From IMG/VR virus record IMGVR_UViG_3300015171_000003: a stretch of 64,000 bases of DNA; one strand, 5' to 3'. Positions 17,653-57,382 of this stretch are shown here, in pieces; the stretch's first letter is position 1; every line of letters starts with the position of its first letter. The notes under the pieces are model-generated. The model worked only from the letters and a program-made list of their open reading frames with translations, did not search any database and was not told the DNA's origin. Position numbers and translations under genes: made by a program. This DNA comes from a virus. Lineage: Duplodnaviria; Heunggongvirae; Uroviricota; Caudoviricetes.

Positions 17653-18189
17653 TCATCTATATTGATTTTTCAATAATCTCCAACGAGTATTATCTATTTC
17701 AATCTTACCACTATCAATACCCTCGATTTTTTCAAAAAGTTCTTCTAAGTTATTATAAATATTTTCATGATTTATTGTGCCAAAAATCCAATAAGGAGTG
17801 CATTTCTTCCCACCTTCAACTACTAAAAATATTTGTTTCTTTGCGCGATTTGCTGTGAAAAATTCCTCGTAACTTCCACATGTATGAACTTTGGGATTTA
17901 AATAAAAAATAATAAAGTCACTTCTATCTACCAGATTTAAATCAAAAGATCTAAATTCCCTACATAAGATACTCAATTCATCATATCTCTCTTCTAAACG
18001 CATATTAGTTAGCTTAACATGAAACTCTGGAGATTCATCAAATGAAAAAAGAAAAGGCTTATTATATGGATCGAAACATGTTATACCAATCTTAGAAAAT
18101 CTATCTTTAACTAAATTTCTCCAAGATTCTCCATTTTGATATTCCATTGATCCAATAAGGTAACATGTTGTCCTATTTAATAAATTCAT
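17653..18189 (-). CDS. nucleoside 2-deoxyribosyltransferase-like protein
   Basis: CYLIGSMEY...W N-terminal motif and DRSDFIIFYL...TCGSYEEFFTANRAKKQIFLVV fit the NDT/Rcl family pattern. Confidence 0.5.
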   Translation of the reverse strand: MNLLNRTTCYLIGSMEYQNGESWRNLVKDRFSKIGITCFDPYNKPFLFSFDESPEFHVKLTNMRLEERYDELSILCREFRSFDLNLVDRSDFIIFYLNPKVHTCGSYEEFFTANRAKKQIFLVVEGGKKCTPYWIFGTINHENIYNNLEELFEKIEGIDSGKIEIDNTRWRLLKNQYR

Positions 18190-19917: not shown

Positions 19918-21162
19918 TTAATAACACTCAATCAAGTACTTAAGATTAATTTGATTTTCTTTATAAACAATCATTTCATCATTAAGAATACCAGAAATAT
20001 TTGGTTTAGCCCAACAAGAATGATATTTTCCACATTTTGGTAATGACTCACCATATTTTGGAATATATACATTACCCATTTCAATATCGGCCACAAATAA
20101 AAAGACATTATTAACTTTTGATTTTGACCAATATCCACAAGAATAATTTAATGATTTTGTAGAATCACTAGAAAAATACGCACCGTTTCCAAATAATTTT
20201 CCTGTAATATTTGCGGTAGATGGAGGAGAAATTTTTAATCCACTATTAAGAATCGAAAGAATATTAGCAACATTAGAACCATGCCATAATTCCATAATAT
20301 TTGATGGATTAATATTACATTCAGAAAAAGACTTCTTCATCTTATTAAGTTGAATTGTATAAATCTTTTTAATTTTCAAATGTTTAGAAGAATGATGTTC
20401 ATGCTTTTTAGTCTTTTCAAACTTAGTATTAATACGATTATATTCAGGAGAACTATTATCAAGAATATCCAAGGCGATATCCAAAAGAGAATCCTCCTGT
20501 TTTTTAGTAGAATCTGGTAATGGAGTTTTTGTAATAGTATTCCACGAAATTTCCAAGGAATCTAAAATATCCGACTGTTTCTTAATAAAATTCTTATCGC
20601 TGAACACACTTATATCAAATTTCTTCATCCCAAATGACTGTGGGACCAATCGGAGATATTGATTAACATCTTTTACCACAATCTTATTAAATAGATTGTC
20701 TAGGAGGCTCCTGGCTTCAGTAATAGAGTCTAACGTAATTATTCCCAATGGAGTTGTGAATAAATTGCTATTCTTATCATAAGAAATGTTTGTGGTAGAA
20801 ACAATATTATGAATATTTGTTTCAATTAGCAATTCAACAAGCTTATCAAGTTCTGAATTTTGAGAAGAAACCTTTTGCTTTACAATTTCTTTTAGATCCT
20901 TCTTTTGAATAGATACTGAAGAAATATTATCCTTAATTACTTTAAGTTCATGATACCCCTTTTTAATCTTTTCCTTAATCTTTTTTTCAAGAAAACGTTC
21001 GCCTCCGCGAGATGAATCATAAGTTTCGGTTTGTCCAGAATATCCTACACGACCATATTCAACATCAATCTTACCATCATCATGTAAAATAGCATTCCAA
21101 TACTTGTTGTGATTCGAATCAACATCCGAATTGATCAACTTAATTTCTCGCAAAATACTCAT
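19918..21162 (-). CDS. PARP-like protein: WGR domain plus poly/mono(ADP-ribose) polymerase catalytic domain
   Basis: N-terminus EYGRVGYSGQTE (WGR-like). C-terminus LWHGSNVANILSILNSGL...GKLFGNGAYFSSDSTKS...DEMIVYKENQINLKYLIE matches the PARP H-G-S / G-x-FGxGxYF / NEYIVY pattern. Confidence 0.6.
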   Translation of the reverse strand: MSILREIKLINSDVDSNHNKYWNAILHDDGKIDVEYGRVGYSGQTETYDSSRGGERFLEKKIKEKIKKGYHELKVIKDNISSVSIQKKDLKEIVKQKVSSQNSELDKLVELLIETNIHNIVSTTNISYDKNSNLFTTPLGIITLDSITEARSLLDNLFNKIVVKDVNQYLRLVPQSFGMKKFDISVFSDKNFIKKQSDILDSLEISWNTITKTPLPDSTKKQEDSLLDIALDILDNSSPEYNRINTKFEKTKKHEHHSSKHLKIKKIYTIQLNKMKKSFSECNINPSNIMELWHGSNVANILSILNSGLKISPPSTANITGKLFGNGAYFSSDSTKSLNYSCGYWSKSKVNNVFLFVADIEMGNVYIPKYGESLPKCGKYHSCWAKPNISGILNDEMIVYKENQINLKYLIECY

Positions 21163-23169: not shown

Positions 23170-24465
23170 ATGAAGTTAGAAAATCAAAGAATTTTAACAA
23201 AGAAAACCACGGCACTCCGAAGGAGTTCCATGGATGTTAAATGCTTTGAAACTAAAATTATAGAAAATAAATTGAAGAATAACCAATATAATAAATTAAA
23301 AGAAATCTATAAACAAGCAAAATATCTAGCTAATGATATTATTGGTTCTGATGATATCTTCGCTTACGATACTAAAATTAAACAAGTTAAAGTTCAATGG
23401 ACAGATAAAGATGGTGTTGAACAATCAGAGTTTAGAACCATTGAAGATCTAAATGCTCAAGTTAAACAATCTATTTTAACTGGTATCATTACTGATATAT
23501 GTAACTTAGCTAAAGCTAAGAAAAAAGGATTGAAAATAGGCAAATTGAAGTTTAAAAAAGAAATTGTTTTATTGAATTTTAAACAATATAAAGGTAATTG
23601 GTATATTAAATCTGGTAATAACCAACTACACCTAGCTGGTTTAGGTAAAATTAAAGTCTCAGGATTAGATCAACTCCCGAAGAATGTTACGGAATTTGGC
23701 CCTGCTAAATTAATCAGAAAACCCTCCGGTTACTACGTTCAAATAACATGTTACTCTAATAAACCAGAATTACCACAAATTAAAGAAGAAATTAATTCAA
23801 CAAATATAATTGGAATAGATATGGGTATTAAAGACCATATTGTTCTATCTAATGGGGAAAAATATAATTTTAATTATGATATTAAAAAGATTCAAAAGAG
23901 TCATCAAGAATTAAGTAGAAAAGTAAAAGGAAGTAAAAATAGATATAAACAATTATGGAGATTAAAGAAAAAATATGAAGAATTAATGAATAAGAAAGTT
24001 AATGATACTAACCAGTTTGTTAGTGATTTAACAAAGAGATTTAAATTAATATGTGTTCAAGATGAAAACATTAGAGGATGGAAAAGTGGTCTGTTTGGAA
24101 AACAGGTTCATGGATCAATATTAGGTAGGATAAAAAGCAAGCTTAATAAGCTTAGTACTACTTTAATTGTACCAATGAATAAACCAACTACTAAATTATG
24201 TCCTAAATGTGAGAAATTAAACATATTAAGTTTAAGTGATAGAACATATGAATGTAGTTGTGGATTTAAAGAGGATAGAGATATTAAATCAGCAAGAACA
24301 ATAGTTTGTATGGCTTTAAACAATTATGTACCTACGGAACGTAGGGAATTTACGCCTGTGGAGATTTTAACCTCTGGTTTAACTGATAAGTATGAACTAC
24401 TTTTTAGTGAAGCTAAGTTAGAATTGTTGAAACAGGAAGCCCATGAGTCTTTAGCTCATGGGTAG
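23170..24465 (+). CDS. tnpB: TnpB (OrfB_IS605) RuvC-like RNA-guided-nuclease family protein, apparently intact
   Basis: RuvC-I IIGIDMGIKD, RuvC-II LICVQDENIRGW, RuvC-III DRDIKSARTI, and zinc finger CPKCEKLN...YECSCG; the C-terminal codons are encoded by the right-end hairpin. Confidence 0.85.
   Translation: MKLENQRILTKKTTALRRSSMDVKCFETKIIENKLKNNQYNKLKEIYKQAKYLANDIIGSDDIFAYDTKIKQVKVQWTDKDGVEQSEFRTIEDLNAQVKQSILTGIITDICNLAKAKKKGLKIGKLKFKKEIVLLNFKQYKGNWYIKSGNNQLHLAGLGKIKVSGLDQLPKNVTEFGPAKLIRKPSGYYVQITCYSNKPELPQIKEEINSTNIIGIDMGIKDHIVLSNGEKYNFNYDIKKIQKSHQELSRKVKGSKNRYKQLWRLKKKYEELMNKKVNDTNQFVSDLTKRFKLICVQDENIRGWKSGLFGKQVHGSILGRIKSKLNKLSTTLIVPMNKPTTKLCPKCEKLNILSLSDRTYECSCGFKEDRDIKSARTIVCMALNNYVPTERREFTPVEILTSGLTDKYELLFSEAKLELLKQEAHESLAHG
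24440..24462 (+). repeat. IS right-end subterminal hairpin (8-bp stem, 7-nt loop) overlapping the tnpB stop
   Basis: Seen directly; it mirrors the left-end hairpin. Confidence 0.75.
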
Positions 24466-29037: not shown

Positions 29038-30288
29038 TTATAAAGAACTTAATTCTTGTTCTAATAAATGCAATATTTTTTCTGAAACTGTAGAATACCA
29101 AGCATCAGAGACAATATCTGTATTTGAATCGCCATTATGAAAAGCACCAATAGCATCACAATTAACCAAAGCTTTTAACAATTTAATAATTGATTCATTT
29201 ACTTTGACTTCATTTTTGATTTGAAGACCTTCATTAAGGTATATACGATATTTTTTAAGATCATTAGTTACAATTCTTTTAATTTCTGCTAAGTCAACTG
29301 TTGGGTTCATATTTTTATTATCAGTTAAATATCTATCTAATCCAGAATAATAGTGTGGATCTTGTTTAATTTTATTAATTGCTCTCGATTTGGCTTTTGT
29401 TTTTTCGGGAATTTCCATTCTTTCCATCTCATACTTAATACCCTGCAAAAGTTCGTCTTTATCTATTCCTGGAACATCAGTATCTTTATCATCAACCGTG
29501 TTATAATCGTATGAGATTACGTTTACAGGAGGAAAACTAGTTCTAGTATATGATACCTGTGGATCTGGTGTAGATGCTTGTCCTAGTGGTGCTGTAGCTC
29601 CACCAGCAGCACTTCCATATCCACCACCACCTAAGTTATATGCTAAATACTCTTTAATTGTCTCTTCTGGAACAGGATTTTTTGGATTTTGGGGAGTTAT
29701 TGGTTGTTCTGGCTCTGGAATTTTTGATTCTGGTTTTTCTTCTGGAGTTTCTTCTTTGTCGGGAACATCACTAACCTTCTTAAAATTAATCCATTGTTTT
29801 TTTGTTCCGGCTTCCCCAAATACACCTTTCTTAAATAAAAACTTTTTACCAAAAAATGTTCTATCTCCAATAAAATTGTCACCCATCCCCTTTTTGACAT
29901 AGGCTAATGTTAAATGTGGTTTATAGTCATTATACTTATTTTGATATGGTACTTTACTTCTTATTTCTTCATTCAATTTAGATAAAGCAGGACTATCAAT
30001 ATCTATTTTAATAACATCAAAATCATTATTATTATCAAATAAAGTAATTTCTTTTAGAACTATTTCTACTGGAAGAGTTTCTGAATAAATTTTCTTAACA
30101 GCATCTAAATATTTATTACTTTTAATTCCATAAAGAATTGTTATGTGAGATTCATATTCTTTTGGATCATCAATAACATCAGGGAAATCTGTGGCTAAAA
30201 TGTTATCAGGAATATTGTCATCAATATACTTCTTGAAAATGAAGTTGTTCTTAAAATAAATGGCGGAAATACAATCGTACATATCCAT
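29038..30288 (-). CDS. 2H phosphoesterase (LigT/CPDase-like) N-terminal domain fused to a large C-terminal region of unknown function
   Basis: Two HxT/Sx motifs (HITILYG and HLTLAYV) about 80 aa apart, followed by a Gly-rich linker and an unknown C-terminal region of about 200 aa. Confidence 0.55.
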   Translation of the reverse strand: MDMYDCISAIYFKNNFIFKKYIDDNIPDNILATDFPDVIDDPKEYESHITILYGIKSNKYLDAVKKIYSETLPVEIVLKEITLFDNNNDFDVIKIDIDSPALSKLNEEIRSKVPYQNKYNDYKPHLTLAYVKKGMGDNFIGDRTFFGKKFLFKKGVFGEAGTKKQWINFKKVSDVPDKEETPEEKPESKIPEPEQPITPQNPKNPVPEETIKEYLAYNLGGGGYGSAAGGATAPLGQASTPDPQVSYTRTSFPPVNVISYDYNTVDDKDTDVPGIDKDELLQGIKYEMERMEIPEKTKAKSRAINKIKQDPHYYSGLDRYLTDNKNMNPTVDLAEIKRIVTNDLKKYRIYLNEGLQIKNEVKVNESIIKLLKALVNCDAIGAFHNGDSNTDIVSDAWYSTVSEKILHLLEQELSSL

Positions 30289-34924: not shown

Positions 34925-35458
34925 TTATTTTAACTTAATTCTCAAAACAAAATCATTTGATGAATATGTCACATTATTATTTTCTCCATAAACTTCTTTT
35001 GAAGTTCCCAAATATTCAAATCCACACTTGACATAAAAATCTTTGGCGTTATCTGTGAAAACATAGAGATATTCATAATCAAACAATCCTTTTAAAATAT
35101 AAATTGTTTCTTGTAATATTTCTTTACCAATTCCCATTTTTTGATATTTTTCAATAATACCAAACCAACTAAGCCACAATGTATAATTGTCGCCTATTTT
35201 CCATAAATACCAACCAGTGATACCAATAGGAATTAATGGCTTTGTATTATACTCATAAACAATTCTTTGCTCCCAAGATACAGCATATTTTGGATCTATT
35301 GAATAACAAGGACATGTGTCTTTTTTAGTACTCATAGGAATTAATCCTATATATTTTGCACAAGATAACACAAATTGCCCTTGATCTCCAAAATCAATTC
35401 CTCTAATAATAGGATCATATTGATTAAACTCTGTGGGTTGTATTAAAAGATATTCCAT
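34925..35458 (-). CDS. GNAT-family N-acetyltransferase
   Basis: Motif A QKMGIGKEIL. Confidence 0.6.
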   Translation of the reverse strand: MEYLLIQPTEFNQYDPIIRGIDFGDQGQFVLSCAKYIGLIPMSTKKDTCPCYSIDPKYAVSWEQRIVYEYNTKPLIPIGITGWYLWKIGDNYTLWLSWFGIIEKYQKMGIGKEILQETIYILKGLFDYEYLYVFTDNAKDFYVKCGFEYLGTSKEVYGENNNVTYSSNDFVLRIKLK

Positions 35459-35462
35459 ATTT

Positions 35463-35966
35463 TTAGTTTTTATTTAAATCGTATTCCATAATAATATTGT
35501 TTTCTCCATTATATTTTGCAACATCAATTTGATTCCACCCATGTTTTTTGTGATATGAAAAAGCATCTGTTGTGTCTAAATAAACTTTTTCAAATCCCAA
35601 AGATTTTACATAATCCAATCTTACTTTAGTTAATTTTTCTCCAAGTTTATTTCCTCTATATTTTGGTTCTACCCAAAGAAGAAAAAACCATGGAGAATAA
35701 TTAGGAACTTTATTCCAAGTTAAAGAAAACATTCCTGTTCCAATAGGATCTTTTTCTGTTTCTGTTCTAAGACAGAAAATTCTTTCACTAGTTTTTGTTG
35801 GAATAAAATTTTCAATTTCTTTATCAGCATCTTCTTTAGAATAATCCCACCTTATTTGTATAAGATTGGATAAATATGGAATATCTTTTTCTGTTGCTTT
35901 TGTTATAATAAAATCCATATTAATCCAATAAAGCTTTTCCAATAATAGGAGCAACACTATAAACAC
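35463..35966 (-). CDS. GNAT-family N-acetyltransferase
   Basis: Motif A YRGNKLGEKL; tandem with the previous GNAT. Confidence 0.6.
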   Translation of the reverse strand: MFIVLLLLLEKLYWINMDFIITKATEKDIPYLSNLIQIRWDYSKEDADKEIENFIPTKTSERIFCLRTETEKDPIGTGMFSLTWNKVPNYSPWFFLLWVEPKYRGNKLGEKLTKVRLDYVKSLGFEKVYLDTTDAFSYHKKHGWNQIDVAKYNGENNIIMEYDLNKN

Positions 35967-36873
35967 TCATAAATGAATGTCTACAATCAGAATATATCAT
36001 CTGAGCATATGTATTAGGATGTGTATTAGTCATTGCAATTTTATTGATTACATCATCTTTGTGTCCTGCTAACTTTTCATACCAACCTTTAGTGAGAACA
36101 CCATGACTCATTACAGCATAAATTTTATTAGCACCTTCTCTTTTATAAATTTCAGCAGCTTTAATCAAAGAAGATCCAGACCGCAACATGTCGTCATAAA
36201 TCACTACAATCTTATCCTTAACATCAGCATTAACTCCTGTGATGTCAGTACTAGATCCTGAATTACGTCGCTTATAACAGAAAGCAGACTCTATCTTATA
36301 ATCTTCTGAATAGGATCTAGATAAGTATTCAACATTCTTTGCTCTACCCACATCAGTTGTTGCAATAACATATTCTTTAGTTCCGGCAATTTCATTGCAC
36401 ATTTGTTGAATTAATGATGTTGTATTGATTTGTGAAGTGTATACACCTCCTTCAAAGAATTCTGTAATAACTGGGGTATGTAAATCCAAGAAATAAAATT
36501 TATTACCATAAGCTGCTCTTGGAATATTAGAAAGCATTGTTGCTCTAATTTTAGCAGCAATAATTTCACCATTCTTAGTTGCGCGTTCCATTGTGGCATA
36601 TCCATAATAAGGAATAACAATATTTAATCTCTTTGCTCCCATTGTAACTAATGTAGAACAAATACTAATCAATTCAACAATATCATCATTTGTTTGGGTC
36701 CCAGCTATTACACAACAAACTTCTCCATCTACTTGTTCTAAAATTCTAAGATAAATTTCTTGGTCTGGAAATTGTTCTCTTTCAATTTTCCCACATTTAA
36801 ATGAATTGGGATATTCCTTTAGAATCTCATCTTTGAGATAATCATATTTTTCAGTTGAAAATAATAATTTCAT
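35920..36873 (-). CDS. prs: ribose-phosphate pyrophosphokinase (PRPP synthetase) family protein; a PRPP synthetase and an ADP-ribose pyrophosphokinase (Adps-type) homolog cannot be told apart by eye
   Basis: C-terminal PRPP-binding region VIYDDMLRSGSSL...KIYAVMSHGV; 317 aa. Confidence 0.7.
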   Translation of the reverse strand: MKLLFSTEKYDYLKDEILKEYPNSFKCGKIEREQFPDQEIYLRILEQVDGEVCCVIAGTQTNDDIVELISICSTLVTMGAKRLNIVIPYYGYATMERATKNGEIIAAKIRATMLSNIPRAAYGNKFYFLDLHTPVITEFFEGGVYTSQINTTSLIQQMCNEIAGTKEYVIATTDVGRAKNVEYLSRSYSEDYKIESAFCYKRRNSGSSTDITGVNADVKDKIVVIYDDMLRSGSSLIKAAEIYKREGANKIYAVMSHGVLTKGWYEKLAGHKDDVINKIAMTNTHPNTYAQMIYSDCRHSFMSVYSVAPIIGKALLD

Positions 36874-36901
36874 AATTTTTTTCTATCTCTTCGTGCATCA
36901 A

Positions 36902-37108
36902 TCATAATTCATTTTCATTGATTGTTTTTTGCATAAAATATTTTTCAATAATATCTAAAATACAAGAGTCTTCATATACATGAATTGTTATTCCATTAAA
37001 TAAAAGATCAGATGTTTTATACTCAGAATCTTTTGCAATTTGTTTTACTCGAATAAATGCATTAAAAATATCTTCGCCTGTATTAGAATCATATAGTTCA
37101 TCACTCAT
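36902..37108 (-). CDS. hypothetical protein
   Basis: 68-aa ORF. Confidence 0.3.
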   Translation of the reverse strand: MSDELYDSNTGEDIFNAFIRVKQIAKDSEYKTSDLLFNGITIHVYEDSCILDIIEKYFMQKTINENEL

Positions 37109-37716
37109 AAATTTATATTATATTCTTTGATTTCACAATTTTGCGGAGTTTTCATTTTATCAAATTCAGATGGTGTTAATTTATTAATGTACATATCAAT
37201 TACATTCATTAAAAATCCATGAGTAACTAGTAAAATTGGACCGGAAATTTTTGTAGATAAATCGAAATTTCTCAAGTAATTAAAAAATGTTGTGACTCTT
37301 TGATAACAGTCCACTCCATTCTCACCATTTTTATACTTGAAATAGAATTTACTTCCATATTCTTTCAATTCATTAACATATTGTGGGAAATCAATTGAGT
37401 TATAAAAATAATAACAAGTATGTTCAATTAACAATGGATTAACTTCGAAATAATTAATATTAATATCAGCTTTTTTTAAATATAGTTCTAACAAATCAAA
37501 TGTCTGTACAGTTCTTAAATATGGTGAACAAAAAACATTTATATGGCTTATATCTTCACCAAAATTCTCAATTATTTTTGGAGCTTGTGTATGAAAATAT
37601 TCAATTCCTTCTACAGATAAAGGAACATTTTCATCTTTCATTGTGTCATAAACATGTTTATTATGTCCATTTGCAATACTTCTTGCGTGCCTTAATGTAA
37701 AAATAGGGACAATCAT
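37105..37716 (-). CDS. histidine phosphatase superfamily (PGAM-like) protein
   Basis: RHG-type motif LRHARSIANG near the N-terminus and a distal LVTHGFLM. Confidence 0.55.
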   Translation of the reverse strand: MIVPIFTLRHARSIANGHNKHVYDTMKDENVPLSVEGIEYFHTQAPKIIENFGEDISHINVFCSPYLRTVQTFDLLELYLKKADININYFEVNPLLIEHTCYYFYNSIDFPQYVNELKEYGSKFYFKYKNGENGVDCYQRVTTFFNYLRNFDLSTKISGPILLVTHGFLMNVIDMYINKLTPSEFDKMKTPQNCEIKEYNINL

Positions 37717-37982
37717 AAAACTGATTTCAAATATGGAGAATCCTTATATTCATCCAAACTCATTCCAAGTAACCATGGATGTACAACATTTAAAAAAGCT
37801 GGGTTACTAACAATCATTCTTGAAAATTCAAATCCACTAGGAATATAACTTCTACCAAAAAATTTATGTTCAAATAAATAATAAAATACATCTACATCCG
37901 TATCATAATCAGTCCAATATATCTTTCCTTGAATAACAGCAACCAATTTTCCTCTAAACAATTTCCTAAAAATATTTTTCAT
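37713..37982 (-). CDS. hypothetical protein
   Basis: 89-aa ORF. Confidence 0.3.
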   Translation of the reverse strand: MKNIFRKLFRGKLVAVIQGKIYWTDYDTDVDVFYYLFEHKFFGRSYIPSGFEFSRMIVSNPAFLNVVHPWLLGMSLDEYKDSPYLKSVL

Positions 37983-38707
37983 ATTAACCTTTTTAATGAA
38001 ATATTACAATAATCTTCATTTTTGTCAATCCCAATATAGTTTCTTCCCAAATTTTTTGCAGCTAAACATGTAGTGCCACTACCCATACAATTATCTAATA
38101 TCAATGCATTTTCATTAGAATATGATTTAATTAAATATTCCATTAATTCAATTGGTTTTTGGGATGGATGCAATCGTTTATCAGAATTATTATTAATATT
38201 ATTAATTTTTAATATAGAAGTAGGAAATCTTTCAGTAGACCCGCCTTCATTATACACAGAATTCACTTCGCCATATGTATTACTTTTATCAGTTCTTTTA
38301 CATGGATGTACTGGAGTATGTCCAGAAGTTTTTTGAGGATTAAATACTCCAAATTTTTTATAAAATACTAATATAGATTCGTGTTTTCTTAATGGTTGTT
38401 TGTTAGCATTTAAAAATCCCGTGGAATAATTCTTTTCCCATATTAAATCATATCTGAAATTCTTAATATTAGAAATAATTAATTTTGTTCTGAATGGTTC
38501 AATCGCAGTCAATATAACATTTCCTTTTAATTTAATTATTCTGTTGTAACTTTCCCACAATAAATCTAATGGAATCATAACATCCCATTCTTGTCTGGCA
38601 GTTGTTCCATATGGTAAATCACATAAAATTAAATCAATTGATTCATCTGGTATTTGTTTCATTAATTCTAAACAATCTCCGTGATATAATTTGTTAATTT
38701 CTAACAT
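37979..38707 (-). CDS. beta-class N6-adenine/N4-cytosine DNA methyltransferase (orphan)
   Basis: Motif IV DLPY near the N-terminus and motif I DNCMGSGTT near the C-terminus; no adjacent restriction endonuclease. Confidence 0.8.
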   Translation of the reverse strand: MLEINKLYHGDCLELMKQIPDESIDLILCDLPYGTTARQEWDVMIPLDLLWESYNRIIKLKGNVILTAIEPFRTKLIISNIKNFRYDLIWEKNYSTGFLNANKQPLRKHESILVFYKKFGVFNPQKTSGHTPVHPCKRTDKSNTYGEVNSVYNEGGSTERFPTSILKINNINNNSDKRLHPSQKPIELMEYLIKSYSNENALILDNCMGSGTTCLAAKNLGRNYIGIDKNEDYCNISLKRLI

Positions 38708-38708
38708 A

Positions 38709-39137
38709 TCAATGAACTGTATTCATTCTACGAATTACTTTATCAGCAATTTCTTTTGTTAATCCTTCTCTAATTTCAGTTTTAACTACAATATCTTCCA
38801 TCCAATCATCACTTATATCATCAATAGCAACATATCTGTCTGGTGCATACATCTTGATCCATGCATAGATCTCTACACCACGATCAACCCCCATCCACTT
38901 TCCATTATATTCTTTTCTCAAATCGGGTATACATCCAAATATAGTTCCTGTGAATCCATTAATCTTCAAAAGTTCTCTAAGTGCATCTACCCCATGACTA
39001 ATTCTCCAACTAGAAGAAACAACAACCATAGAATTTGTTTCATGTACAATTCTATTAAGCTGTTCTATACATTCTGGAAGCCAATATCCTTTAGGTGTAT
39101 TTAAAACCCCGTCAAAATCTAAAAATATAATATTCAT
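38709..39137 (-). CDS. HAD-like phosphatase (PNK-phosphatase / 5'-nucleotidase-like)
   Basis: Motif I IFLDFDGVLNT. Confidence 0.5.
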   Translation of the reverse strand: MNIIFLDFDGVLNTPKGYWLPECIEQLNRIVHETNSMVVVSSSWRISHGVDALRELLKINGFTGTIFGCIPDLRKEYNGKWMGVDRGVEIYAWIKMYAPDRYVAIDDISDDWMEDIVVKTEIREGLTKEIADKVIRRMNTVH

Positions 39138-39149
39138 ATGATATTTTAT

Positions 39150-39569
39150 CTATTCACAATCTTTAAATTTTTCTCTTAATTCCAAGTATTTTTGATATTC
39201 ATCACTTTTCTTTTTTTCTTTAATTTTCTCATCCATTTCTTCTGCTAAAGCATCTTCTTTCTTTTTAAGATCCAGTTTATTTTTAACAATATCGTTAACA
39301 TTTCTCCATAAATTTGACAAATCAAAAAGATGACAATCATTAACATAGTCTCCAATATTACTGAAAATTATTTCTCCATAACAAAGAATTGTAAATTGCA
39401 AATCTTGTGTAGATTTATTTTTTAAAATTTCATTTTCAAATTCAAATTGAGAAATTTTTTCAACAAGAGAATTAAATTCATCTGTTTGAAATATTTCTCC
39501 AAATGAGATGCTTATATTACTTCCATCATAATAGCCATCGGGTCTATATACAAAAACAGTGTATTTCAT
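39150..39569 (-). CDS. hypothetical protein, tandem paralog of 39584..39910
   Basis: Both start MKYT(V/L)F(V/Y)YR and share the GEIFQ(T/S) motif. Confidence 0.4.
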   Translation of the reverse strand: MKYTVFVYRPDGYYDGSNISISFGEIFQTDEFNSLVEKISQFEFENEILKNKSTQDLQFTILCYGEIIFSNIGDYVNDCHLFDLSNLWRNVNDIVKNKLDLKKKEDALAEEMDEKIKEKKKSDEYQKYLELREKFKDCE

Positions 39570-39583
39570 AAAATAATGATATA

Positions 39584-39910
39584 TTAATTGTTATAATAAT
39601 TTTTATAATTTTTAAATACCTCATAATTAATTCTATCATATAAATTTTTTAAAGTCAAAAAATATTCATCAGAAAGATCTTCTTTAATATAATCACCATC
39701 AATCTCAGTACAAACTATTTGGGCATCAAACATTATTGTAATATCAGATACCGCAATTTCTGGTCCACTATTCATATTTTCACATTTAATCTCAATAATC
39801 TTATTTGTAAATTCTTCAAAATTTAAACTCTGAAAAATTTCTCCTTCGGAATTACTGGATTTATCTTCACAAGAACAATTCTTTCTATAATAAAATAATG
39901 TGTATTTCAT
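39584..39910 (-). CDS. hypothetical protein, tandem paralog of 39150..39569
   Basis: See 39150..39569. Confidence 0.4.
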   Translation of the reverse strand: MKYTLFYYRKNCSCEDKSSNSEGEIFQSLNFEEFTNKIIEIKCENMNSGPEIAVSDITIMFDAQIVCTEIDGDYIKEDLSDEYFLTLKNLYDRINYEVFKNYKNYYNN

Positions 39911-39918
39911 ATTTTTAA

Positions 39919-40887
39919 TTATTTTACAATAATTTTTGACATATTTTTAAACAACATATTAAGCAAAACATGGTGTTCCTTAACAATTAATTCTTCACCC
40001 GCACCATTGCGACAAAGATCATCAAAATCAAACCATTTAACTTCGGAGATGTCATCTGATGCTTGAGGTCTACCAAATAACAATTTACAATAGAAAAATG
40101 CAGTTTTAATACAATCTTCTCCATCTTTAGGGTATCTCCAGTCCAAAATTTTAGTACTTCCAATATAAACAGGATCACTAATTTCACATAATCCAGTTTC
40201 CTCCATCACTTCTCTTTTAGCATCATCTTCCAAAGAATTACTTCTAGGGTCACTAAAACCTCCAATAAATCTATGTTTATCTTCCTTTGGTTTCTTACCA
40301 AGAAGAATCTTAGTAAAGTCTTCATTAAAGATTGCTACATCTACAGTTTGATAAGCAGTAGGATATCTACTCTGAGTAGAATAAATCACGCCTGCCCTGA
40401 ATTCTGGCGAAGCAATGGTCTTTGCAGATATAGTCTTGCGCATCTCAGTTCCAGAAACAAAAACATCGCTTTCTAATTCAATTGTTTTATTTTTTCCATT
40501 ATAATATTGAATAAAACTATCTCTACTTCCATATAAAGTTATTGTTTGGCCGGGATTTAAATGTTTTGAAATTTGATCATCTAAATTTTTACTCCAATCA
40601 GAATCATCTTTGACATCATTAATATAATGAATCTCCAAATCATCTTTGGGAAATTCTTCGATTAACATTTGTTTGCGAGCATTAAAATCTAATGGATTCT
40701 TTTTTGTGTTTCTTACTTCACTCAATCCCAAAAAAATAATAACTCTTTTGTGATTATTAATTACAGTTTGAATTAATTTTCTATGAGCGTCATGTAATTT
40801 ATGCACTTGCATTCTACAAACCAATCCACCAACAACAGTATTTTCTTTTACTTCTTCCTTAACCTTCAATACATTTTTAGTAGTCAT
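39919..40887 (-). CDS. nadM: bifunctional NMN adenylyltransferase / Nudix hydrolase (NadM-Nudix, NatV-like)
   Basis: N-terminal nucleotidyltransferase motif RMQVHKLH (compare NadM RFQPFHKGH) and C-terminal Nudix box GGFSDPRSNSLEDDAKREVMEETGL. Confidence 0.65.
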   Translation of the reverse strand: MTTKNVLKVKEEVKENTVVGGLVCRMQVHKLHDAHRKLIQTVINNHKRVIIFLGLSEVRNTKKNPLDFNARKQMLIEEFPKDDLEIHYINDVKDDSDWSKNLDDQISKHLNPGQTITLYGSRDSFIQYYNGKNKTIELESDVFVSGTEMRKTISAKTIASPEFRAGVIYSTQSRYPTAYQTVDVAIFNEDFTKILLGKKPKEDKHRFIGGFSDPRSNSLEDDAKREVMEETGLCEISDPVYIGSTKILDWRYPKDGEDCIKTAFFYCKLLFGRPQASDDISEVKWFDFDDLCRNGAGEELIVKEHHVLLNMLFKNMSKIIVK

Positions 40888-40888
40888 A

Positions 40889-42289
40889 TTATTTTAATTC
40901 TGCGTTTTTACGAATATCTTCAAATTTTTGATCAATCAATAATTCGCCATTTTCATAAACAGTTACTAATTGATCTTCAAGTTCTGGATATTGATCTTCA
41001 TTAACAGTAGTATATACTCCATCAATAATAACCAACTTCAAACGACCTTTTTTACTTATCTTTCCCTGATCTGTAATTGGATCTTTATAAACATCTCTAC
41101 CTTCGCCACCAACCTTTGCCCAACAGCATTTTGTCGCAAATTTTAATGTATCTCTATTTAAATCCTGCAAAAGTTTTCCACCACAGCCAAACAAAATATT
41201 GTCTGTACTATATCCACTATTAGTAATATTATCTAAAATATCTCCAATCGATTTGTAATTAACAGAGTCTCCATAAATAACACCAACCTTTGGATTTAAT
41301 GTTTTATAACCCTTTTCATTTACAGTCGTTCCGAAATATTTTTCAAGATTTTGAATTACTTCAAGACTCATTTTCACAGGATCTCCACTATCTGGGCGAA
41401 CAACCAATTTTGCAAATCCCGTCTTTTGTCCACGAGCAAGAATTTTATCTTTGAGAGTAGTTCCAAACATTTTGATTGCTTCGTAAATGTTATAAGAATC
41501 ACTTACCAAAGAAATAATTCCTTCTGGACATTCATCAATAAATGTTTCATACGCTTTACACTCATTTTCCCTACCATAAATAGTAGTTGTGCTATGTTCC
41601 GTAGCAAATACAGAATGTCCGCACACCCCACTATTATAGTATCCCATAGCAAGTTTAATCCCCGCAAAATTATCTGTTCCCAAGAAATTTATTAAATGTG
41701 CTGCTCCTCCAAGACCAGCACTTTCGGGAGAACTAACACCTCTAAATCCAAAATCATTTAAATGAAATGGACTAAGTTTACATCCAGTTTTATCAGCATA
41801 AGTCTTAATTCTCTCTTTAATTTTTCTACTAAGAGTTGCTACTGTTGTCGGATACCAAACTTCAAGCAATAGTGTTTCAAGAAAATTTGTTAGCCAAGGA
41901 ACTTTTTCATCAGTATTTTCAATAGTAAACAAAACATTTTTAGTAGGAACAACCGAACCTTCTATTACGGATTTTATTCGAATAGGCAGAGCACCTTCAT
42001 ATTTGTTAAGGATATATTCCCAACCTTCTCTGTTAAAAAAATCTTTTGTTCCAAATACTTGTTGACAAAACTCATCAGCTTCATCAATAAATTTTTGATT
42101 TACAATTTTTCCACTCAAATAATTCTTTAAAAAATATTGTAGTCCAAAGAATACAGTATAATCAAAAACTCCTCCCCTAGATTCTAAATAAGAATATACA
42201 ATTTGTGTGTTTTTGGGGTACTGCCTGAAATGGCACATTTTATAAGCATCACTATTTAAAATAGCATTATCAAATACATTCTTCATCAT
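40889..42289 (-). CDS. nadV: nicotinamide phosphoribosyltransferase (NAMPT/NadV)
   Basis: ILNSDAYKMCHFRQYPKNTQIVYSYLESRGG matches the NAMPT N-terminal signature (LLATDSYKVTHYKQYP...VYSYFE); 466 aa. Confidence 0.85.
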   Translation of the reverse strand: MMKNVFDNAILNSDAYKMCHFRQYPKNTQIVYSYLESRGGVFDYTVFFGLQYFLKNYLSGKIVNQKFIDEADEFCQQVFGTKDFFNREGWEYILNKYEGALPIRIKSVIEGSVVPTKNVLFTIENTDEKVPWLTNFLETLLLEVWYPTTVATLSRKIKERIKTYADKTGCKLSPFHLNDFGFRGVSSPESAGLGGAAHLINFLGTDNFAGIKLAMGYYNSGVCGHSVFATEHSTTTIYGRENECKAYETFIDECPEGIISLVSDSYNIYEAIKMFGTTLKDKILARGQKTGFAKLVVRPDSGDPVKMSLEVIQNLEKYFGTTVNEKGYKTLNPKVGVIYGDSVNYKSIGDILDNITNSGYSTDNILFGCGGKLLQDLNRDTLKFATKCCWAKVGGEGRDVYKDPITDQGKISKKGRLKLVIIDGVYTTVNEDQYPELEDQLVTVYENGELLIDQKFEDIRKNAELK

Positions 42290-43312: not shown

Positions 43313-44026
43313 TTATTTTGGTAATATCAAATAATTTATATCAAGAATGGTTTTCTCAAATTTATAATCAATAGACTCTACAAATTCTTCATAATCCGAA
43401 AAGGATGTTTTAAAGAAATCTTGAAATTGTTCTTCATATTCAAATATAATTGGCATTTTATTTCTCAGAATAGTTTTCTTCGCACCTTTCATTGCTAATA
43501 AATCACATCCCTGAATATCGATTTTCATGAAACCAATTTTCTTTTGAATATCAAGACTGTCTATAGTGATTGTTTTTACTACCACATCTCCATTAGAAGG
43601 ATCTTTTGTTGGTTTTAATCCAAATGCACCATATGATCCATACGAACGATCCATATGATGACTAGGAAAAATTACTTCTGATTTTGTGTCATCATATACA
43701 GCACCATAAAATGGAATAATATTTTGTATATCATTAGCATTAATATTTTTAACTAAAATACTAAAAATAAATTCTTGTGCCTCAAAACTATAAACCATTC
43801 CTGTTTTGCCGCACATTTTTGAAAACAAAATACTCATCTGTCCTAAATTTGCTCCTATATCTAAAACAACATCACCTTCTTTTATATATTCTTTTGCAAC
43901 ATCCACTATTTCTTTTTCAAAAATAATTCCATTTTTAATGTTATCTTTTATAACATCTCTATGTAAAAAAGTAGGAATATAATAACTTCCATGTGCAGTT
44001 TGTACAAAATCAAGATCACTCATCAA
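43313..44026 (-). CDS. FkbM-family SAM-dependent methyltransferase
   Basis: VVLDIGANLGQMSILFSK. Confidence 0.6.
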   Translation of the reverse strand: MMSDLDFVQTAHGSYYIPTFLHRDVIKDNIKNGIIFEKEIVDVAKEYIKEGDVVLDIGANLGQMSILFSKMCGKTGMVYSFEAQEFIFSILVKNINANDIQNIIPFYGAVYDDTKSEVIFPSHHMDRSYGSYGAFGLKPTKDPSNGDVVVKTITIDSLDIQKKIGFMKIDIQGCDLLAMKGAKKTILRNKMPIIFEYEEQFQDFFKTSFSDYEEFVESIDYKFEKTILDINYLILPK

Positions 44027-44478
44027 ATTTTACTAAGAAGTTTCAATTGAGAACGATAAATTAAAGATTTAGCTTCTTCATTAGAAACCCAACGAAATTT
44101 ATCATTTTCGGGATATTTTGTTCCATCAATAAGAGATTTGCAATGTAATTTCTTTGTTCTTAGCATACCAAACTCGTCACTTAGATAATACACATAAACA
44201 ATTTTCTTTTCACCCATACTATGATAATGCAAAACATCTATGGGAGAATTACTTATATTAAATCCTAGTTTTTTAAGATCCAATCCAGTTTCTTCATGAA
44301 CCTCGCGATATGCAGCATCTTTTGATGATTCATTACCATCAATTTTTCCTTTTGGAATACCCCATCTGGTATGTTCATAATTAATTTCCTTACCAGAATC
44401 AAGTCCCTCCACATCAGTTGAATGACATAGTAATATCTTCCCATCACTTATAATTAATACACCAGCAGATTCGATCAT
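44023..44478 (-). CDS. Nudix hydrolase
   Basis: Nudix box GKIDGNESSKDAAYREVHEETGL. Confidence 0.75.
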   Translation of the reverse strand: MIESAGVLIISDGKILLCHSTDVEGLDSGKEINYEHTRWGIPKGKIDGNESSKDAAYREVHEETGLDLKKLGFNISNSPIDVLHYHSMGEKKIVYVYYLSDEFGMLRTKKLHCKSLIDGTKYPENDKFRWVSNEEAKSLIYRSQLKLLSKI

Positions 44479-45297: not shown

Positions 45298-45560
45298 TCC
45301 TCACCATTTTCATTTTTAATAACCCAATCATTTCCTAAATGAATTCCATCAGAAGATTTAAATTTTACTGTTTCTGAAAAAATGTCACCGCCTATTGATA
45401 TAACATTTCCATTAGGATCGCATGTTCCCCAAGACCCAATAACTTTGTGATCCCCATATCTTTCTAAAACAGTTTCTCCACCAGTAAATATTGGTTTGGG
45501 GGTTCTATTAAATAAATTATAGAAATATGTCTTTACTTTATTAAATATATTTTTCATCAC
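45282..45560 (-). CDS. hypothetical protein
   Basis: 92-aa ORF. Confidence 0.35.
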   Translation of the reverse strand: MMKNIFNKVKTYFYNLFNRTPKPIFTGGETVLERYGDHKVIGSWGTCDPNGNVISIGGDIFSETVKFKSSDGIHLGNDWVIKNENGEDWKNI

Positions 45561-46087
45561 AAATTTTTATATAAAATTTTATCATTTAAATGAAAAGATA
45601 TTTTATCTGAAGAAATTCCTTTGTCAATTAATTCTTGTGTCGTTCCAAGTAATATAAACCCATTTTTAATATAAAAATTTTCAGAAGTATCTGTAAACAA
45701 ATATAAATTTTTTGCGTTATTATTAATTTCTTTTAATTTTTTAATAGCTAGAGATAATATCATACTACCAAATCCTTTTTTCTGATATTGTTTTTTTACT
45801 CCAAACCAAGAAAGCCAATCAACTAACTCATTTTCTTTTAAAATGTGATTGTATAACCCGAATGTTCCAATTAATGTTTCTCTAAACCTATTTCCAACAA
45901 TTAATGTTTTATCATAGACCAAATATTGTTTCCGATAATCTCCAAATTTTAATTTCTTTTCTAAAATTCCACAATATTTTGCCATTGACAAAATAAAACG
46001 ATCATGATCCTTTCCAAAATTAATATTTTTTATTAAAGAAACATAATCTTCAAAATCTTTAGATTCTTTTATTATAAAATTATTCAC
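45557..46087 (-). CDS. GNAT-family N-acetyltransferase
   Basis: Motif A QKKGFGSMIL. Confidence 0.55.
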   Translation of the reverse strand: MNNFIIKESKDFEDYVSLIKNINFGKDHDRFILSMAKYCGILEKKLKFGDYRKQYLVYDKTLIVGNRFRETLIGTFGLYNHILKENELVDWLSWFGVKKQYQKKGFGSMILSLAIKKLKEINNNAKNLYLFTDTSENFYIKNGFILLGTTQELIDKGISSDKISFHLNDKILYKNL

Positions 46088-46880
46088 AACAATTTTTCAA
46101 ATTTAAATACAACTCATTCATTTTAATATCATCTTTCACAATGCCGCTCATTTGTCCATCATTTATTTCTATCAGTATCCAATCACCTGCTTGTGTTTTT
46201 GCAATATCAATTACAAAGAAATCAACATGGTCAGAAATAATATCAGCAATCTTTTTTGCAAATGACATTCCTTCATCATCTAATAATCCAACTTTTTCAC
46301 TATTTGACCAATAGAAAAAATTAGTAAGCATTGTCTTTTTATAAAAGAAAAATCTGTGTTCATTAGAGAATGGAAGTCCACTTATAGAAATTTCCAAATT
46401 TTCTAATGGAACAAAATCTCTAACAATAATTCCTTGACTAGAAATCATAGGATCATCCATCAATTCATGATAAACATCAACAACTCTTTTATATCCTTTT
46501 GCAAACATTTTAGTGTTCCACTTATGTTTAGAGGAATTTGTCCTTCCTTTGACCACAAAAGATTTATCTTCATCCTTTGGAACTTCAACTAAATTAAAAT
46601 AAGTTTTTGGAGTAAAATCCTTTACATGTTCATAATAATCAAAATTGGCAATGTAAGTATGTTAACTAAATGTATTAATCAATTGACATCCATGTTTTAT
46701 CAAGTCAATCTCTAATTCTTTGTAAAATGGCCGAACGGAATATCTCCCAATAACTAATTGCTTTTTACAATCTATTCTACTATTGACTACTTCAAAATAT
46801 TTCTTGGCAACAAAATATTCTTTATCTGCTTCATAGATATTATCTACAAGATTTCTGTATAGTATAATTGGAGATTTCAT
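46080..46880 (-). pseudogene. ATP-grasp enzyme gene interrupted by one in-frame TAA (at 46662-46664). It is either a pseudogene or a read-through gene.
   Basis: Track ORFs 46662..46880 and 46080..46556 are in the same frame, and the 35 codons between them have no other stop. The inter-ORF codons encode the ATP-grasp P-K-T / FVVKGRTNSS lysine region; the C-terminal part is WILIEINDGQMSG; the downstream track start is GTG. Confidence 0.5.
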
Positions 46881-52349: not shown

Positions 52350-52916
52350 TTATAATTCAGTTAAAATTTTTTCTCTAGCATTCCCCAACGCAATTCCCAA
52401 CCAATTAGTCCCCCATTTATCCTTTTCATTAAAAACATTTACATCATCTTCAAGATAACCAATACCCCAAATTCTATCATATGGAGAAGCTTCAATTAAA
52501 ATATATGGATCAGTTAAAATAATAAGTTCTTTAAATTTATCATTGCTAATAAATTTTTTGTAATTTGAATATGAAACAAAATTCACAACATTTTCTTCCC
52601 AAACAGATTGGTCAAAGTTTTTTACTTTTTTACCCAAAGCTTTTTGATCTTTTGGTGATGTTGATTGTAAAATTTTCTGAAAAGATTCTTCATCATTAAA
52701 AACACTTGCTTTATATAACATCATTGCTTGTTCAGCGCAATTTACTCTATATTCAGAATTATTAATTGTTACTGTATATAAACATGGATGCCATTGAGAA
52801 AATATCCCATTCCAAAAAAGAATAGATTTTTCTTCTGGATATAATGTGGCATCTAAAGATTTAATTTTGATTTTTCTCATGATTTTAATTTTACAATAAT
52901 TAATTATTTTGATCAA
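52350..52916 (-). CDS. NADAR (DUF1768/YbiA-like) domain protein
   Basis: ILFWNGIFSQWHP...NCAEQAMMLYKA...PKDQKALGKKV...LIEASPYDRIWGIGY matches the NADAR consensus FFWGG..SNF...E..fq..K.....P.......W......L.E..p.D..WG.G. Confidence 0.55.
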   Translation of the reverse strand: MIKIINYCKIKIMRKIKIKSLDATLYPEEKSILFWNGIFSQWHPCLYTVTINNSEYRVNCAEQAMMLYKASVFNDEESFQKILQSTSPKDQKALGKKVKNFDQSVWEENVVNFVSYSNYKKFISNDKFKELIILTDPYILIEASPYDRIWGIGYLEDDVNVFNEKDKWGTNWLGIALGNAREKILTEL

Positions 52917-56404: not shown

Positions 56405-57382
56405 TTAATGTTTCTTTTCAAGAATACCATTCCCAATAAAATCTGTCAAGCTTAAATAACCAGAATAACTAACACCACTAGATATTCCTCCAACTAAATC
56501 ATCAACTAATTCTTTTAATGGTCTAATCTTATTCTTGTCCACCTCTATCACAGTACCTTCGCTATGACGTTTAGCAGTACCGTAGTGCAATTTTTGTTGA
56601 TGATTCGAGGCACCACCCCAATACTTAAAATTTTTATCTATAATTGATTGAGATTCTTCTGCATGAGAAAAATATCCACCAAGCATAACTTTTGTTGCTC
56701 CCACGGAAAATGCTTTTGTTGCACAGCCCGAATCTTTTATTCCTCCATCAGCAATAATATTAATTGGATAATTATGATCTTTACAAAAATCAGAACATTC
56801 TATTAATTCTGTTATCTGGCCTCTTGTGTAACCAGTCATGTCTTTTGTTGTGCAGACGACCCCATTTCCAATGCCAACACGTACAGACAATCTATTTAAA
56901 CAAGGAATATCATTTTTATAATTAACAAATATATCGGGTGTATGAACATTACCAATTATTAAATTTACATCCATCAATAAACATCTAGCAAAATCAATTA
57001 CATTTTGTTGATATCCATTCGCCACATCAATAATAAAATTTTTAACTCCTATGGCACTTAATGAATGATATCTATCCCAATCATTTAATCCAATACAATA
57101 CCATAATTTATCACAATCAAACTTTTTAACTAAATTAACTTGCTCTTCAATAGTACAAAATCTATGTAAACAAACATGTATACCAGTTTCTATTGCTGCT
57201 CTTATGAATGATTCACCAACTATAGCTGCCATTGGAGAAACAATTATTCGTTCTCTAATATCAGTTATATCTTTTCTTGATTTCAACTCAGTGTGTTGAG
57301 CAATCAAATTTACATCATCATAATATATGGATGTGGATTTTAATATCGTCGCCATATTTTTACCACACAACTTCAAAATCAA
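56405..57382 (-). CDS. guaC: GMP reductase / IMP dehydrogenase family (GuaC-like) TIM-barrel enzyme
   Basis: Catalytic-Cys loop VGIGNGVVCTTK (compare GIGPGSVCTTR) and IADGGIKDSGCATKAFSVGATKVMLGGYFSHAEES (compare IADGG...GDVAKAFGAGADFVMLGGM). Confidence 0.65.
   Translation of the reverse strand: MILKLCGKNMATILKSTSIYYDDVNLIAQHTELKSRKDITDIRERIIVSPMAAIVGESFIRAAIETGIHVCLHRFCTIEEQVNLVKKFDCDKLWYCIGLNDWDRYHSLSAIGVKNFIIDVANGYQQNVIDFARCLLMDVNLIIGNVHTPDIFVNYKNDIPCLNRLSVRVGIGNGVVCTTKDMTGYTRGQITELIECSDFCKDHNYPINIIADGGIKDSGCATKAFSVGATKVMLGGYFSHAEESQSIIDKNFKYWGGASNHQQKLHYGTAKRHSEGTVIEVDKNKIRPLKELVDDLVGGISSGVSYSGYLSLTDFIGNGILEKKH

Follow-up and report, generated by a model that had tools for sequence, protein, structure and literature searches.

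This study analyzed a gene block for nicotinamide adenine dinucleotide (NAD+) metabolism in a 64,000-nucleotide stretch of viral DNA (Caudoviricetes; IMG/VR record IMGVR_UViG_3300015171_000003), the whole of which is called the window. An earlier note, made from the sequence alone, had proposed that this block rebuilds NAD+ during infection. The block comprises ten minus-strand genes at 35920-42289; the list of open reading frames (ORFs) reproduced all coordinates of that note, and scans of the block proteins against Pfam, PHROG, and NCBIfam recovered all the ORFs and domains that it had named. The first gene (40889-42289) encodes a NadV-type nicotinamide phosphoribosyltransferase (NAMPT) with NAMPT_N and NAPRTase domains, and a gene encoding a NatV/NadM-like nicotinamide mononucleotide (NMN) adenylyltransferase (NMNAT) joined to a Nudix hydrolase (39919-40887) starts 1 nt after its stop. 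These are followed by the small paralogs B (108 aa; 39584-39910) and A (139 aa; 39150-39569), a HAD_SAK_2-type HAD phosphatase (38709-39137; PF18143, 88 bits; phrog_1818), a beta-class N6/N4 DNA methyltransferase (37979-38707; N6_N4_Mtase, PF01555, 111 bits), an 89-aa ORF that overlaps both of its neighbors by 4 nt and has no family match (37713-37982), a PGAM-like histidine phosphatase of the His_Phos_1 family (37105-37716; PF00300, 45 bits), and a 68-aa ORF (36902-37108). Immediately downstream of this ORF, the last gene (35920-36873) encodes a 317-aa Prs-like ribose-phosphate diphosphokinase with Pribosyltran_N and Pribosyl_synth domains. This gene had been described as lying about 3 kb away from the NAMPT pair; it is instead the last member of the same tightly packed block. 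From NAMPT to the Prs-like gene, the successive intergenic gaps are 1, 8, 14, 12, 1, -4, -4, -4, and 28 nt, and this spacing fits a single transcription unit. Promoter and terminator scans yielded counts equal to the shuffled expectation and were uninformative at approximately 27% GC. Upstream of the block, a stand-alone Nudix hydrolase of 151 aa (44023-44478, minus strand; PF00293, 51.5 bits) is possibly associated with it.

Two phage pathways served as references for the core enzymes. NARP2 of Vibrio phage KVP40 (NadV and NatV) is a two-gene pathway that converts nicotinamide and phosphoribosyl pyrophosphate (PRPP) to NMN and then to NAD+ (10.1101/2024.02.11.579819; Lee et al. 2017, as cited in that paper). 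The NARP1 pathway depends on the kinase Adps and the transferase Namat, and for 97% of Adps genes a Namat gene lies in the immediate neighborhood (10.1101/2024.02.11.579819). Namat has two defining features, a clamp that binds adenine and carries the helix motif GS-x-Phi-x-Phi-x-Phi-TRD (x positions aromatic), and an extended beta1-beta2 loop (Lan et al., PMC12774641). The window NAMPT matched NCBIfam NF006629 with 594.6 bits against a cut-off of 405 and phrog_448 with 8.8e-157; it scored 427 bits to the Xanthomonas Nampt 7yqo, approximately 395 bits to mammalian Nampt, and approximately 247 bits to 9ke8/9w5w. We aligned it with the Namats of SPbetaL1, ICP1, SSBI34, and phiR1-37. The clamp (SCH) region read GCGGKLLQDLNRDT in the window NAMPT and its relatives, which is the Nampt pattern, whereas the four Namats read GIGSFTYQYNTRDT or similar ('GSxFxYxxTRD') at this position, and the Namat beta1-beta2 loop (SCL) insertion was lacking. 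The catalytic motifs DFGFRG, GTD, ATEHS, and RPDSGDP were intact. Judged from the clamp motif, the loop, and the scores, the enzyme is a Nampt (NadV) type that would prefer PRPP and not a Namat, and of the two clades that the earlier note had left open it falls on the NadV side.

The NatV protein matched the NUDIX family of Pfam (E = 1.9e-11), and its N-terminal NadM-like nucleotidyltransferase domain was recognized through phrog_395 and weak NF003787/NF010365 matches. Its best solved relative was the NadM-Nudix protein of Francisella (2qjt), with which both domains align collinearly. The nucleotidyltransferase motifs RMQVHKLHDAH and SGTEMR are present, as is a Nudix box ending in REVMEETGL. 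Downstream of this box, the subfamily reads DWRY where classical NadM-Nudix proteins read FDHPxRSLRGR. Relatives with 37-46% identity adjoin NAMPT in four 'uncultured phage' genomes of 0.46-0.64 Mb and in Tunturiibacter phage Tunturi_5, and orthologues adjoin NAMPT in the nrtR operons of Cytophagales. On its motifs and neighbors, the gene is an NMNAT-Nudix fusion of a divergent subfamily common to Cytophagales and huge phages. The 1-nt spacing, the Nampt-type motifs, the NMNAT-Nudix motifs, and the similarity to 2qjt all agree with the previous proposal that the two genes form a NARP2/KVP40-type pair.

The Prs-like protein matched TIGR01251 with 180.5 bits against a cut-off of 113. A homology search first returned a coherent family of approximately 40 clusters at 38-100% identity, here called PrsL, and then ordinary Prs at approximately 30%; in a representative search, at least 103 clusters were found at E <= 1e-30, with scores falling gradually. 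In a scan of species genomes, at least 582 bacterial species carried a PrsL gene, most of them from Cytophagales, Chitinophagales, Sphingobacteriales, and Myxococcota; the best identity was 49%. Profiles of PrsL, canonical Prs, and Adps that were built without any phage sequence were used for scoring; the Adps sequences collected were the validated or operon-defined ones of ICP1, SPbetaL1, SSBI34, and phiR1-37, and the Prs references were E. coli Prs and canonical Prs from the homology search. The results revealed that the window protein scored 354 bits on the bacterial PrsL profile, 152 bits on canonical Prs, and 74 bits on Adps. Adps proteins reached only 27-58 bits on the bacterial PrsL profile. 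Among 50,697 phage records, tblastn with the Prs-like query returned 31 weak matches below 30% identity, mostly to ordinary Prs, and no PrsL-subfamily member was found in these deposited phage genomes; an Adps query matched 1,579 records.

We then compared the protein with the residue criteria that separate Adps from Prs (Liu et al., PMC13586617). It retains the FxDxE flag, DLH, and the KRR catalytic loop, which are invariant or nearly so across the subfamily, as well as the DD...(T/S)-G-(G/S)-S phosphate loop (DDMLRSGSS in the window) and the C-terminal segment 'SVAPIIGKALL', which is lost in Adps. The Adps PP loop C/A-D-G-A-A-S/T is absent, and the positions of the adenine-stacking Arg87 and Phe92 of Adps are both Thr. 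In a neighbor-joining (NJ) tree, the window protein branched apart from Adps, the phage PrsL copies formed their own sub-branch, and two more distant viral copies (L018 and L020) formed a separate branch. The same tree placed Adps as sister to the PrsL clade; we rejected this placement as long-branch attraction because the profile scores make Adps and PrsL the most distant pair. Judged from profiles and residues, the protein is not an Adps but a ribose-phosphate diphosphokinase of a Cytophagales/Chitinophagales/Myxococcota subfamily that is not fully canonical, and PRPP synthase activity is the most economical reading. Of the two roles suggested for it earlier, PRPP supply is favored by the Prs-type profile and residues. 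The other, a NARP1-type Adps working with a Namat-like transferase, disagrees with the lowest profile score, the retained C-terminal segment, the missing Adps PP loop, and the NAMPT without a clamp. Loss of the catalytic residues, which would have counted against a functional module, was observed neither here nor in NAMPT. The representative search also returned a 578-aa protein (P0253) in which a PrsL-like diphosphokinase is fused to a C-terminal isochorismatase (nicotinamidase-family) domain, a possible Rosetta-stone link of this Prs group to pyridine salvage.

Gene neighborhoods were read in the relatives P0003, P0004, P0006, P0007, P0010, P0011, and P0033. In the viral contig L001 (PrsL 82% identical to that of the window), a Nudix gene lies upstream of NAMPT, NatV, three small ORFs, HAD, a 160-aa ORF, His_Phos_1, a 97-aa ORF, PrsL, and a MazG-like gene. 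The arrangement in L013 (69%) is compact: Nudix, NAMPT, NatV, His_Phos_1, an 88-aa ORF, PrsL, an 84-aa ORF, and MazG-like. L013 lacks HAD, the methyltransferase, and the paralogs, and L001 lacks the methyltransferase. The stand-alone Nudix copies upstream of NAMPT are 68% (L001) and 51% (L013) identical to the window protein and directly adjoin NAMPT in L013; the window copy has only short similarity to the Nudix domain of NrtR and no winged helix-turn-helix domain. The 68-aa ORF of the window is weakly conserved: L013 has its 88-aa protein in the corresponding position, and the two share 29% identity (E = 6e-6). Prs and His_Phos_1 travel with the NAMPT-NatV pair in both contigs, and this synteny agrees with the previous suggestion of an extended or variant arrangement. 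In two further IMG/VR contigs, L018 (7626-12404) and L020 (8675-13786), with PrsL identities of approximately 39-40%, a classical NadM-Nudix gene is directly followed by PrsL, one or two small ORFs, a Macro domain gene, and NAMPT. This module is a candidate 'NARP2 with associated phosphatase', and we found no description of such an arrangement in the searchable literature. Small proteins of approximately 140-149 aa lie beside PrsL in L018 (9655-10086), L020 (10992-11411), and the bacterial locus L048 (7549-7998); those of L018 and L020 are 58% identical to each other, and none matches the small ORFs of the window. On a phage-like metagenomic contig (L014), a NAD kinase gene (3040-3774) is located immediately upstream of a PrsL-clade gene 48% identical to that of the window.

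The same three enzyme families occur together in bacteria. In 6 or 7 of the 80 bacterial loci (among L048, L052, L060, L069, L080, L090, and L095), the order is NrtR (Nudix and NrtR_WHD), NatV-like, NAMPT, a 149-aa ORF, and PrsL, and the NatV-like and NAMPT proteins are 37-50% and 49-51% identical to those of the window, respectively. The genomes include those of Marivirga lumbricoides, M. tractuosa, Cytophagales metagenome-assembled genomes (MAGs), and a Cyclobacteriaceae MAG. No NrtR_WHD match was found in the window block or in the flanking ORFs scanned; operator sites were not searched. This gene-neighborhood evidence indicates that the Prs-like gene is functionally tied to the NAD genes, and the window block probably shares ancestry with the Cytophagales salvage operons. 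The earlier note had regarded a housekeeping bacterial clade with no phage association as evidence against a dedicated module. A bacterial clade was indeed found; however, part of it is wired to NAD salvage, and the phage copies stand apart within it.

The two phosphatases that the earlier note had grouped together differ in conservation: His_Phos_1 is conserved with the module, whereas HAD is a variable insert. In the window, L001, and L013, His_Phos_1 (RHA motif 'LRHARS'; 58-59% identity) is found between NatV and PrsL while the surrounding genes change, and its residues R9, H10, R68, E98/H99, and H166 are invariant. Its best named profile match was a sub-threshold one to CobC. HAD carries the motifs DFDGV, SSS, and DD and is 64% identical to the copy in L001; the HAD_SAK_2 family has been linked to RNA-end repair (PMC9503650). 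The remaining inserts included the beta-class methyltransferase and the two tandem paralogs reported previously, which were confirmed through the motif order DLPY...GSG and an identity of 32% (E = 2e-7), respectively. In L001 and L013, the methyltransferase slot holds the 160-aa protein or nothing, and the paralogs were not found. Paralog B had no family match in Pfam, PHROG, or NCBIfam; a search of 5.8 billion clusters with paralog A returned only itself, and its AF2 model (two sequences) was poor (predicted local distance difference test [pLDDT] score, 68). The 89-aa ORF is not shared with the relatives. HAD, the methyltransferase, the 89-aa ORF, and the two paralogs are regarded as variable cargo.

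A phosphatase inside an NAD+ reconstitution operon has a precedent. In NARP1-AP (Adps-Adpp-Namat), Adpp turns aRES-made ADP-ribose (ADPR)-1''-phosphate into ADP-ribose (Osterman et al. 2026, 10.64898/2026.01.28.702374), and RyDEP is another accessory gene inserted into NARP1 operons, which it feeds. Vibrio phage 184E37.1 has this architecture, with an 'Appr-1-p processing' Macro domain between Adps and Namat. The Macro domains of L018 and L020, which occupy a slot equivalent to that of His_Phos_1, are homologous to it over their full length (26-30% identity; E = 7e-12 and 5e-15). The g069 protein of phiR1-37, also located between Adps and Namat, was set aside as it is not a Macro domain, and 184E37.1 was used for the comparison instead. 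None of the ten block proteins matched a Macro domain in Pfam, PHROG, or NCBIfam. By positional analogy only, His_Phos_1 might act on a phosphorylated form of ribose, ADP-ribose, or NAD(P) and so make it available to the cycle, a role that we propose tentatively and consider doubtful.

Based on its gene context, the window is treated as part of a large phage. Its GC content is approximately 27%, nearly all genes lie on one strand, and small same-strand ORFs are densely packed across the region. Genes matching PHROG families include an endolysin, a DNA-polymerase fragment, a Thg1-like enzyme, and families of unknown function. The window contains no tRNAs and no structural genes, and the ORFs that were scanned included neither ribosomal genes nor other housekeeping genes typical of cells. 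Megablast of the 6.4-kb block against the 50,697 phage records returned no match, and no close relative is present there. A metagenomic contig of 82.8 kb is on record with the exact Prs-like protein, and an 82%-identical relative occurs on contigs of up to 217 kb.

Several other genes of the window were observed (minus strand unless stated otherwise). A 414-aa WGR-PARP (19918-21162) is encoded approximately 20 kb away from the NAD block; it aligns collinearly with human PARP1/PARP2 (E ~1e-21) and, by its retained H-Y-E triad, is apparently active. A NADAR domain protein (PF08719, 141 bits) is encoded at 52350-52916; such domains were reported close to NadM/NadV in phages with NAD+ synthesis of their own (PMC9503650). 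An IMPDH/GMP-reductase family protein (56405-57382; 122 bits) is a further nucleotide-metabolism gene of the phage. The Thg1-like tRNA-His guanylyltransferase (18191-18985; phrog_4717, 256 bits) adjoins a nucleoside 2-deoxyribosyltransferase-like gene (17653-18189), and L001 and L013 also carry a CCA-adding enzyme; these look like an RNA repair/modification set. A TnpB/OrfB_IS605 (Cas12f-like TNB) gene at 23170-24465 on the plus strand, opposite to nearly all others, is probably an IS200/IS605-type insertion in the phage genome. A 416-aa protein (29038-30288) has a 2H phosphoesterase/Acb1-like N-terminal region, and its homologues also lie a few kilobases from the NAD module in L001 and L013. 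At 46080-46556, the window encodes an ATP-grasp protein of the R2K clade, and a member of the same family (6978-7829) lies a few kilobases from PrsL in L014, an unrelated contig. The Prs-like gene is directly followed by two GNAT acetyltransferase genes (34925-35458 and 35463-35966), and a third is found at 45557-46087. A GNAT also follows PrsL in the bacterial locus L005, and L001 and L013 have the MazG-like gene at this position; the association of GNAT with PrsL in the window and L005 may be a coincidence.

These findings suggest that the block is probably a NARP2-type NAD+ salvage/reconstitution operon to which a dedicated PRPP synthase and one or more accessory phosphatases have been added. 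In the proposed cycle, a host NADase would cleave NAD+ to nicotinamide and ADP-ribose, and the Nudix domain, perhaps together with the stand-alone Nudix at 44023-44478, would split ADP-ribose into AMP and ribose-5-phosphate. The phage Prs would form PRPP from ribose-5-phosphate and ATP, Nampt would combine PRPP with nicotinamide to yield NMN, and the NMNAT domain would convert NMN to NAD+. The cycle would thereby be closed from both cleavage products, as in NARP1 but with conventional enzymes, and the host PRPP pool, which plain NARP2 drains, would be spared. NudC converts ADPR pyrophosphate (ADPR-PP) to PRPP (10.1101/2024.02.11.579819). Should ADP-ribose be the actual substrate of the kinase, PRPP would still arise through cleavage of ADPR-PP by Nudix, and the net result would therefore be independent of the order of the two steps.

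Nevertheless, several observations weigh against this interpretation. The flexible loop of the Prs-like protein reads YATMERA where canonical Prs reads YARQDRK, with loss of the adenine-stacking Arg, and its phosphate loop follows DDM-x-R-(T/S)-G-G-S instead of DDM-x-D-T-G-G-T (Asp to Arg); both changes are subfamily-wide. Because these nucleotide-site positions differ from those of canonical Prs, the acceptor and donor specificity of the enzyme is presumptive. Similarly, the 'RSLRGR' stretch of classical NadM-Nudix proteins is missing from the Nudix domain, whose ADP-ribose specificity is an assumption because the subfamily diverges downstream of the Nudix box. Approximately 73 of the 80 bacterial PrsL loci are not beside nadV (one example is beside dnaA), and the subfamily is not exclusively devoted to NAD salvage because most bacterial members sit elsewhere in the chromosome. 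The His_Phos_1 family was seen only in three or four closely related contigs (three clusters, with two relatives found in the homologue search); its AlphaFold model, built from three sequences, was poor (pLDDT, 61), and Foldseek of this model against the Protein Data Bank returned only generic dPGM, FBPase-2, CobC, and Sts matches (TM, 0.43-0.52). The counter-defense role is borrowed by analogy from the KVP40 experiments. Moreover, the phage encodes an NAD+ consumer of its own, the PARP-like protein, which suggests a self-supply role.

Such self-supply was weighed as an explanation of the whole block: the same enzymes might keep NAD+ and PRPP high for phage NAD+ consumers and for nucleotide synthesis in the course of a large-genome infection. 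The WGR-PARP with its intact triad and the NADAR protein support this idea, as do the second Nudix and the MazG-like, IMPDH/GMP-reductase-like, and nucleoside deoxyribosyltransferase-like proteins of the window; the homologous bacterial operon belongs to a housekeeping salvage regulon (PMC2330246), and PRPP is a general nucleotide precursor. However, the Prs-like gene is syntenic with NAMPT and NMNAT-Nudix in several lineages and not with purine or pyrimidine genes, the KVP40 pair was reported to defeat Thoeris and DSR2 (10.1101/2024.02.11.579819), and the Adpp-like Macro domain of L018 and L020 points to host-made ADPR-1''-phosphate. We consider self-supply rather unlikely as the sole explanation. 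The two roles are not mutually exclusive, and with WGR-PARP and NADAR in the same window self-supply cannot be separated from counter-defense. An explanation by chance appears very unlikely: NAMPT and NatV alone would form a unit, and Prs, the phosphatases, the methyltransferase, and the paralogs would be accessory genes unrelated to it that lie downstream by coincidence in a gene-dense region. The methyltransferase, HAD, and the paralogs do vary among the window, L001, and L013; Tunturi_5 has NatV and NAMPT with no Prs or phosphatase nearby; the Prs of LR756504 lies approximately 50 kb away; and the promoter and terminator scans were no better than chance. Against these points, the linkage of the Prs-like gene with NAMPT and NMNAT-Nudix recurs in viral contigs with PrsL identities of 82%, 69%, and approximately 39%, six or seven bacterial genomes show it as well, and His_Phos_1 keeps its position between NatV and Prs while its neighbors change.

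The least probable reading, to which we give hardly any weight, is that of a NARP1-type pathway in which the Prs-like protein is Adps and the NAMPT-like protein is a Namat joining ADPR-PP to nicotinamide directly. Both Pfam architectures match Adps and Namat (10.1101/2024.02.11.579819), the nucleotide site is remodelled in the PrsL subfamily, and the NJ tree has Adps as sister to the PrsL clade, although probably through long-branch attraction. In contrast, the Adps profile scored lowest, and the 317-aa Prs-like protein keeps the C-terminal segment, lacks the Adps loop, and has Thr at the Arg87 and Phe92 equivalents (PMC13586617). The NAMPT has neither the GSxFxYxxTRD clamp nor the SCL insertion (PMC12774641) and is much closer to Xanthomonas and human Nampt. 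A tightly coupled NMNAT, which NARP1 does not need, is present, and eight genes separate the Prs-like and NAMPT genes. The NARP2-type operon with its own Prs may be part of a more elaborate scheme, for which the odds are clearly on the low side: a self-sufficient 'NARP2-plus' would make NAD+ from both NADase products, and the embedded phosphatase (His_Phos_1, or the Adpp-like Macro in L018 and L020) would admit aRES-made ADPR-1''-phosphate or NADP+-derived 2'-phospho-ADPR. Such a module would be a non-homologous counterpart of NARP1-AP, with the orphan paralogs as further anti-defense cargo.

The comparison with known systems places the window closest to NARP2. NARP2 consumes PRPP and overproduces NAD+, and this cost has been suggested to explain its rarity (Osterman et al. 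2024, 10.1101/2024.02.11.579819). A Prs of its own, fed by Nudix, would answer the PRPP cost. If this reading is true, a phage PRPP synthase and an ADP-ribose-cleaving Nudix remove that cost and render NARP2 functionally equivalent to NARP1. The finding also connects the phage pathway with the 'second prs' of bacterial NrtR regulons, which had long gone unexplained, and points to a Cytophagales-type origin. The embedded phosphatases suggest that an arms race over modified ADP-ribose, so far described only for NARP1, may also have shaped NARP2-type modules. In the searchable literature, we found no report of phages in which NARP2 is coupled to a PRPP synthetase and an ADP-ribose pyrophosphatase.

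By sequence, the window core appears to have the marks of NARP2 (a Nampt kind of transferase, an NMNAT alongside, and a phage genome) and none of those of NARP1. It resembles NARP2 in having a Nampt-type enzyme beside a bifunctional NMNAT-Nudix in a large phage, with the same predicted chemistry, but it adds a Prs-family kinase, His_Phos_1, and variable inserts, and its NatV belongs to a divergent subfamily. In bacterial NrtR regulons, nrtR-prs-nadV and nadM-nadV arrangements occur, and it was suggested that Prs is supplied with the ribose-5-phosphate that Nudix releases from ADP-ribose (Rodionov et al. 2008, PMC2330246). The window shares with these operons the three enzyme families and a dedicated prs clustered with nadV and NMNAT-Nudix; it differs in gene order, in its phage setting, and in the inserted phosphatases and orphan genes. 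NARP1 has the same Pfam architectures and the same predicted net outcome (ADP-ribose, nicotinamide, and ATP to NAD+), whereas its clades and signature motifs differ, and the window route would run through ribose-5-phosphate, PRPP, and NMN and would need NMNAT. The likeness to NARP1-AP consists of a phosphatase gene inside an NAD+ reconstitution operon, with the homologous Macro domain in the equivalent slot of L018 and L020; the window itself has His_Phos_1 and HAD in place of a Macro domain, and its pathway is NARP2-like. NARP3 (PnuC and NadR; PMC13464706) is likewise a phage NAD+-restoring pathway, but its precursor is nicotinamide riboside, and the window module has no transporter or NadR kinase domain. 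The enzyme trio is thus known from bacterial NrtR regulons, and what the window adds is best described as NARP2 with a dedicated non-Adps Prs and a lineage-conserved phosphatase.

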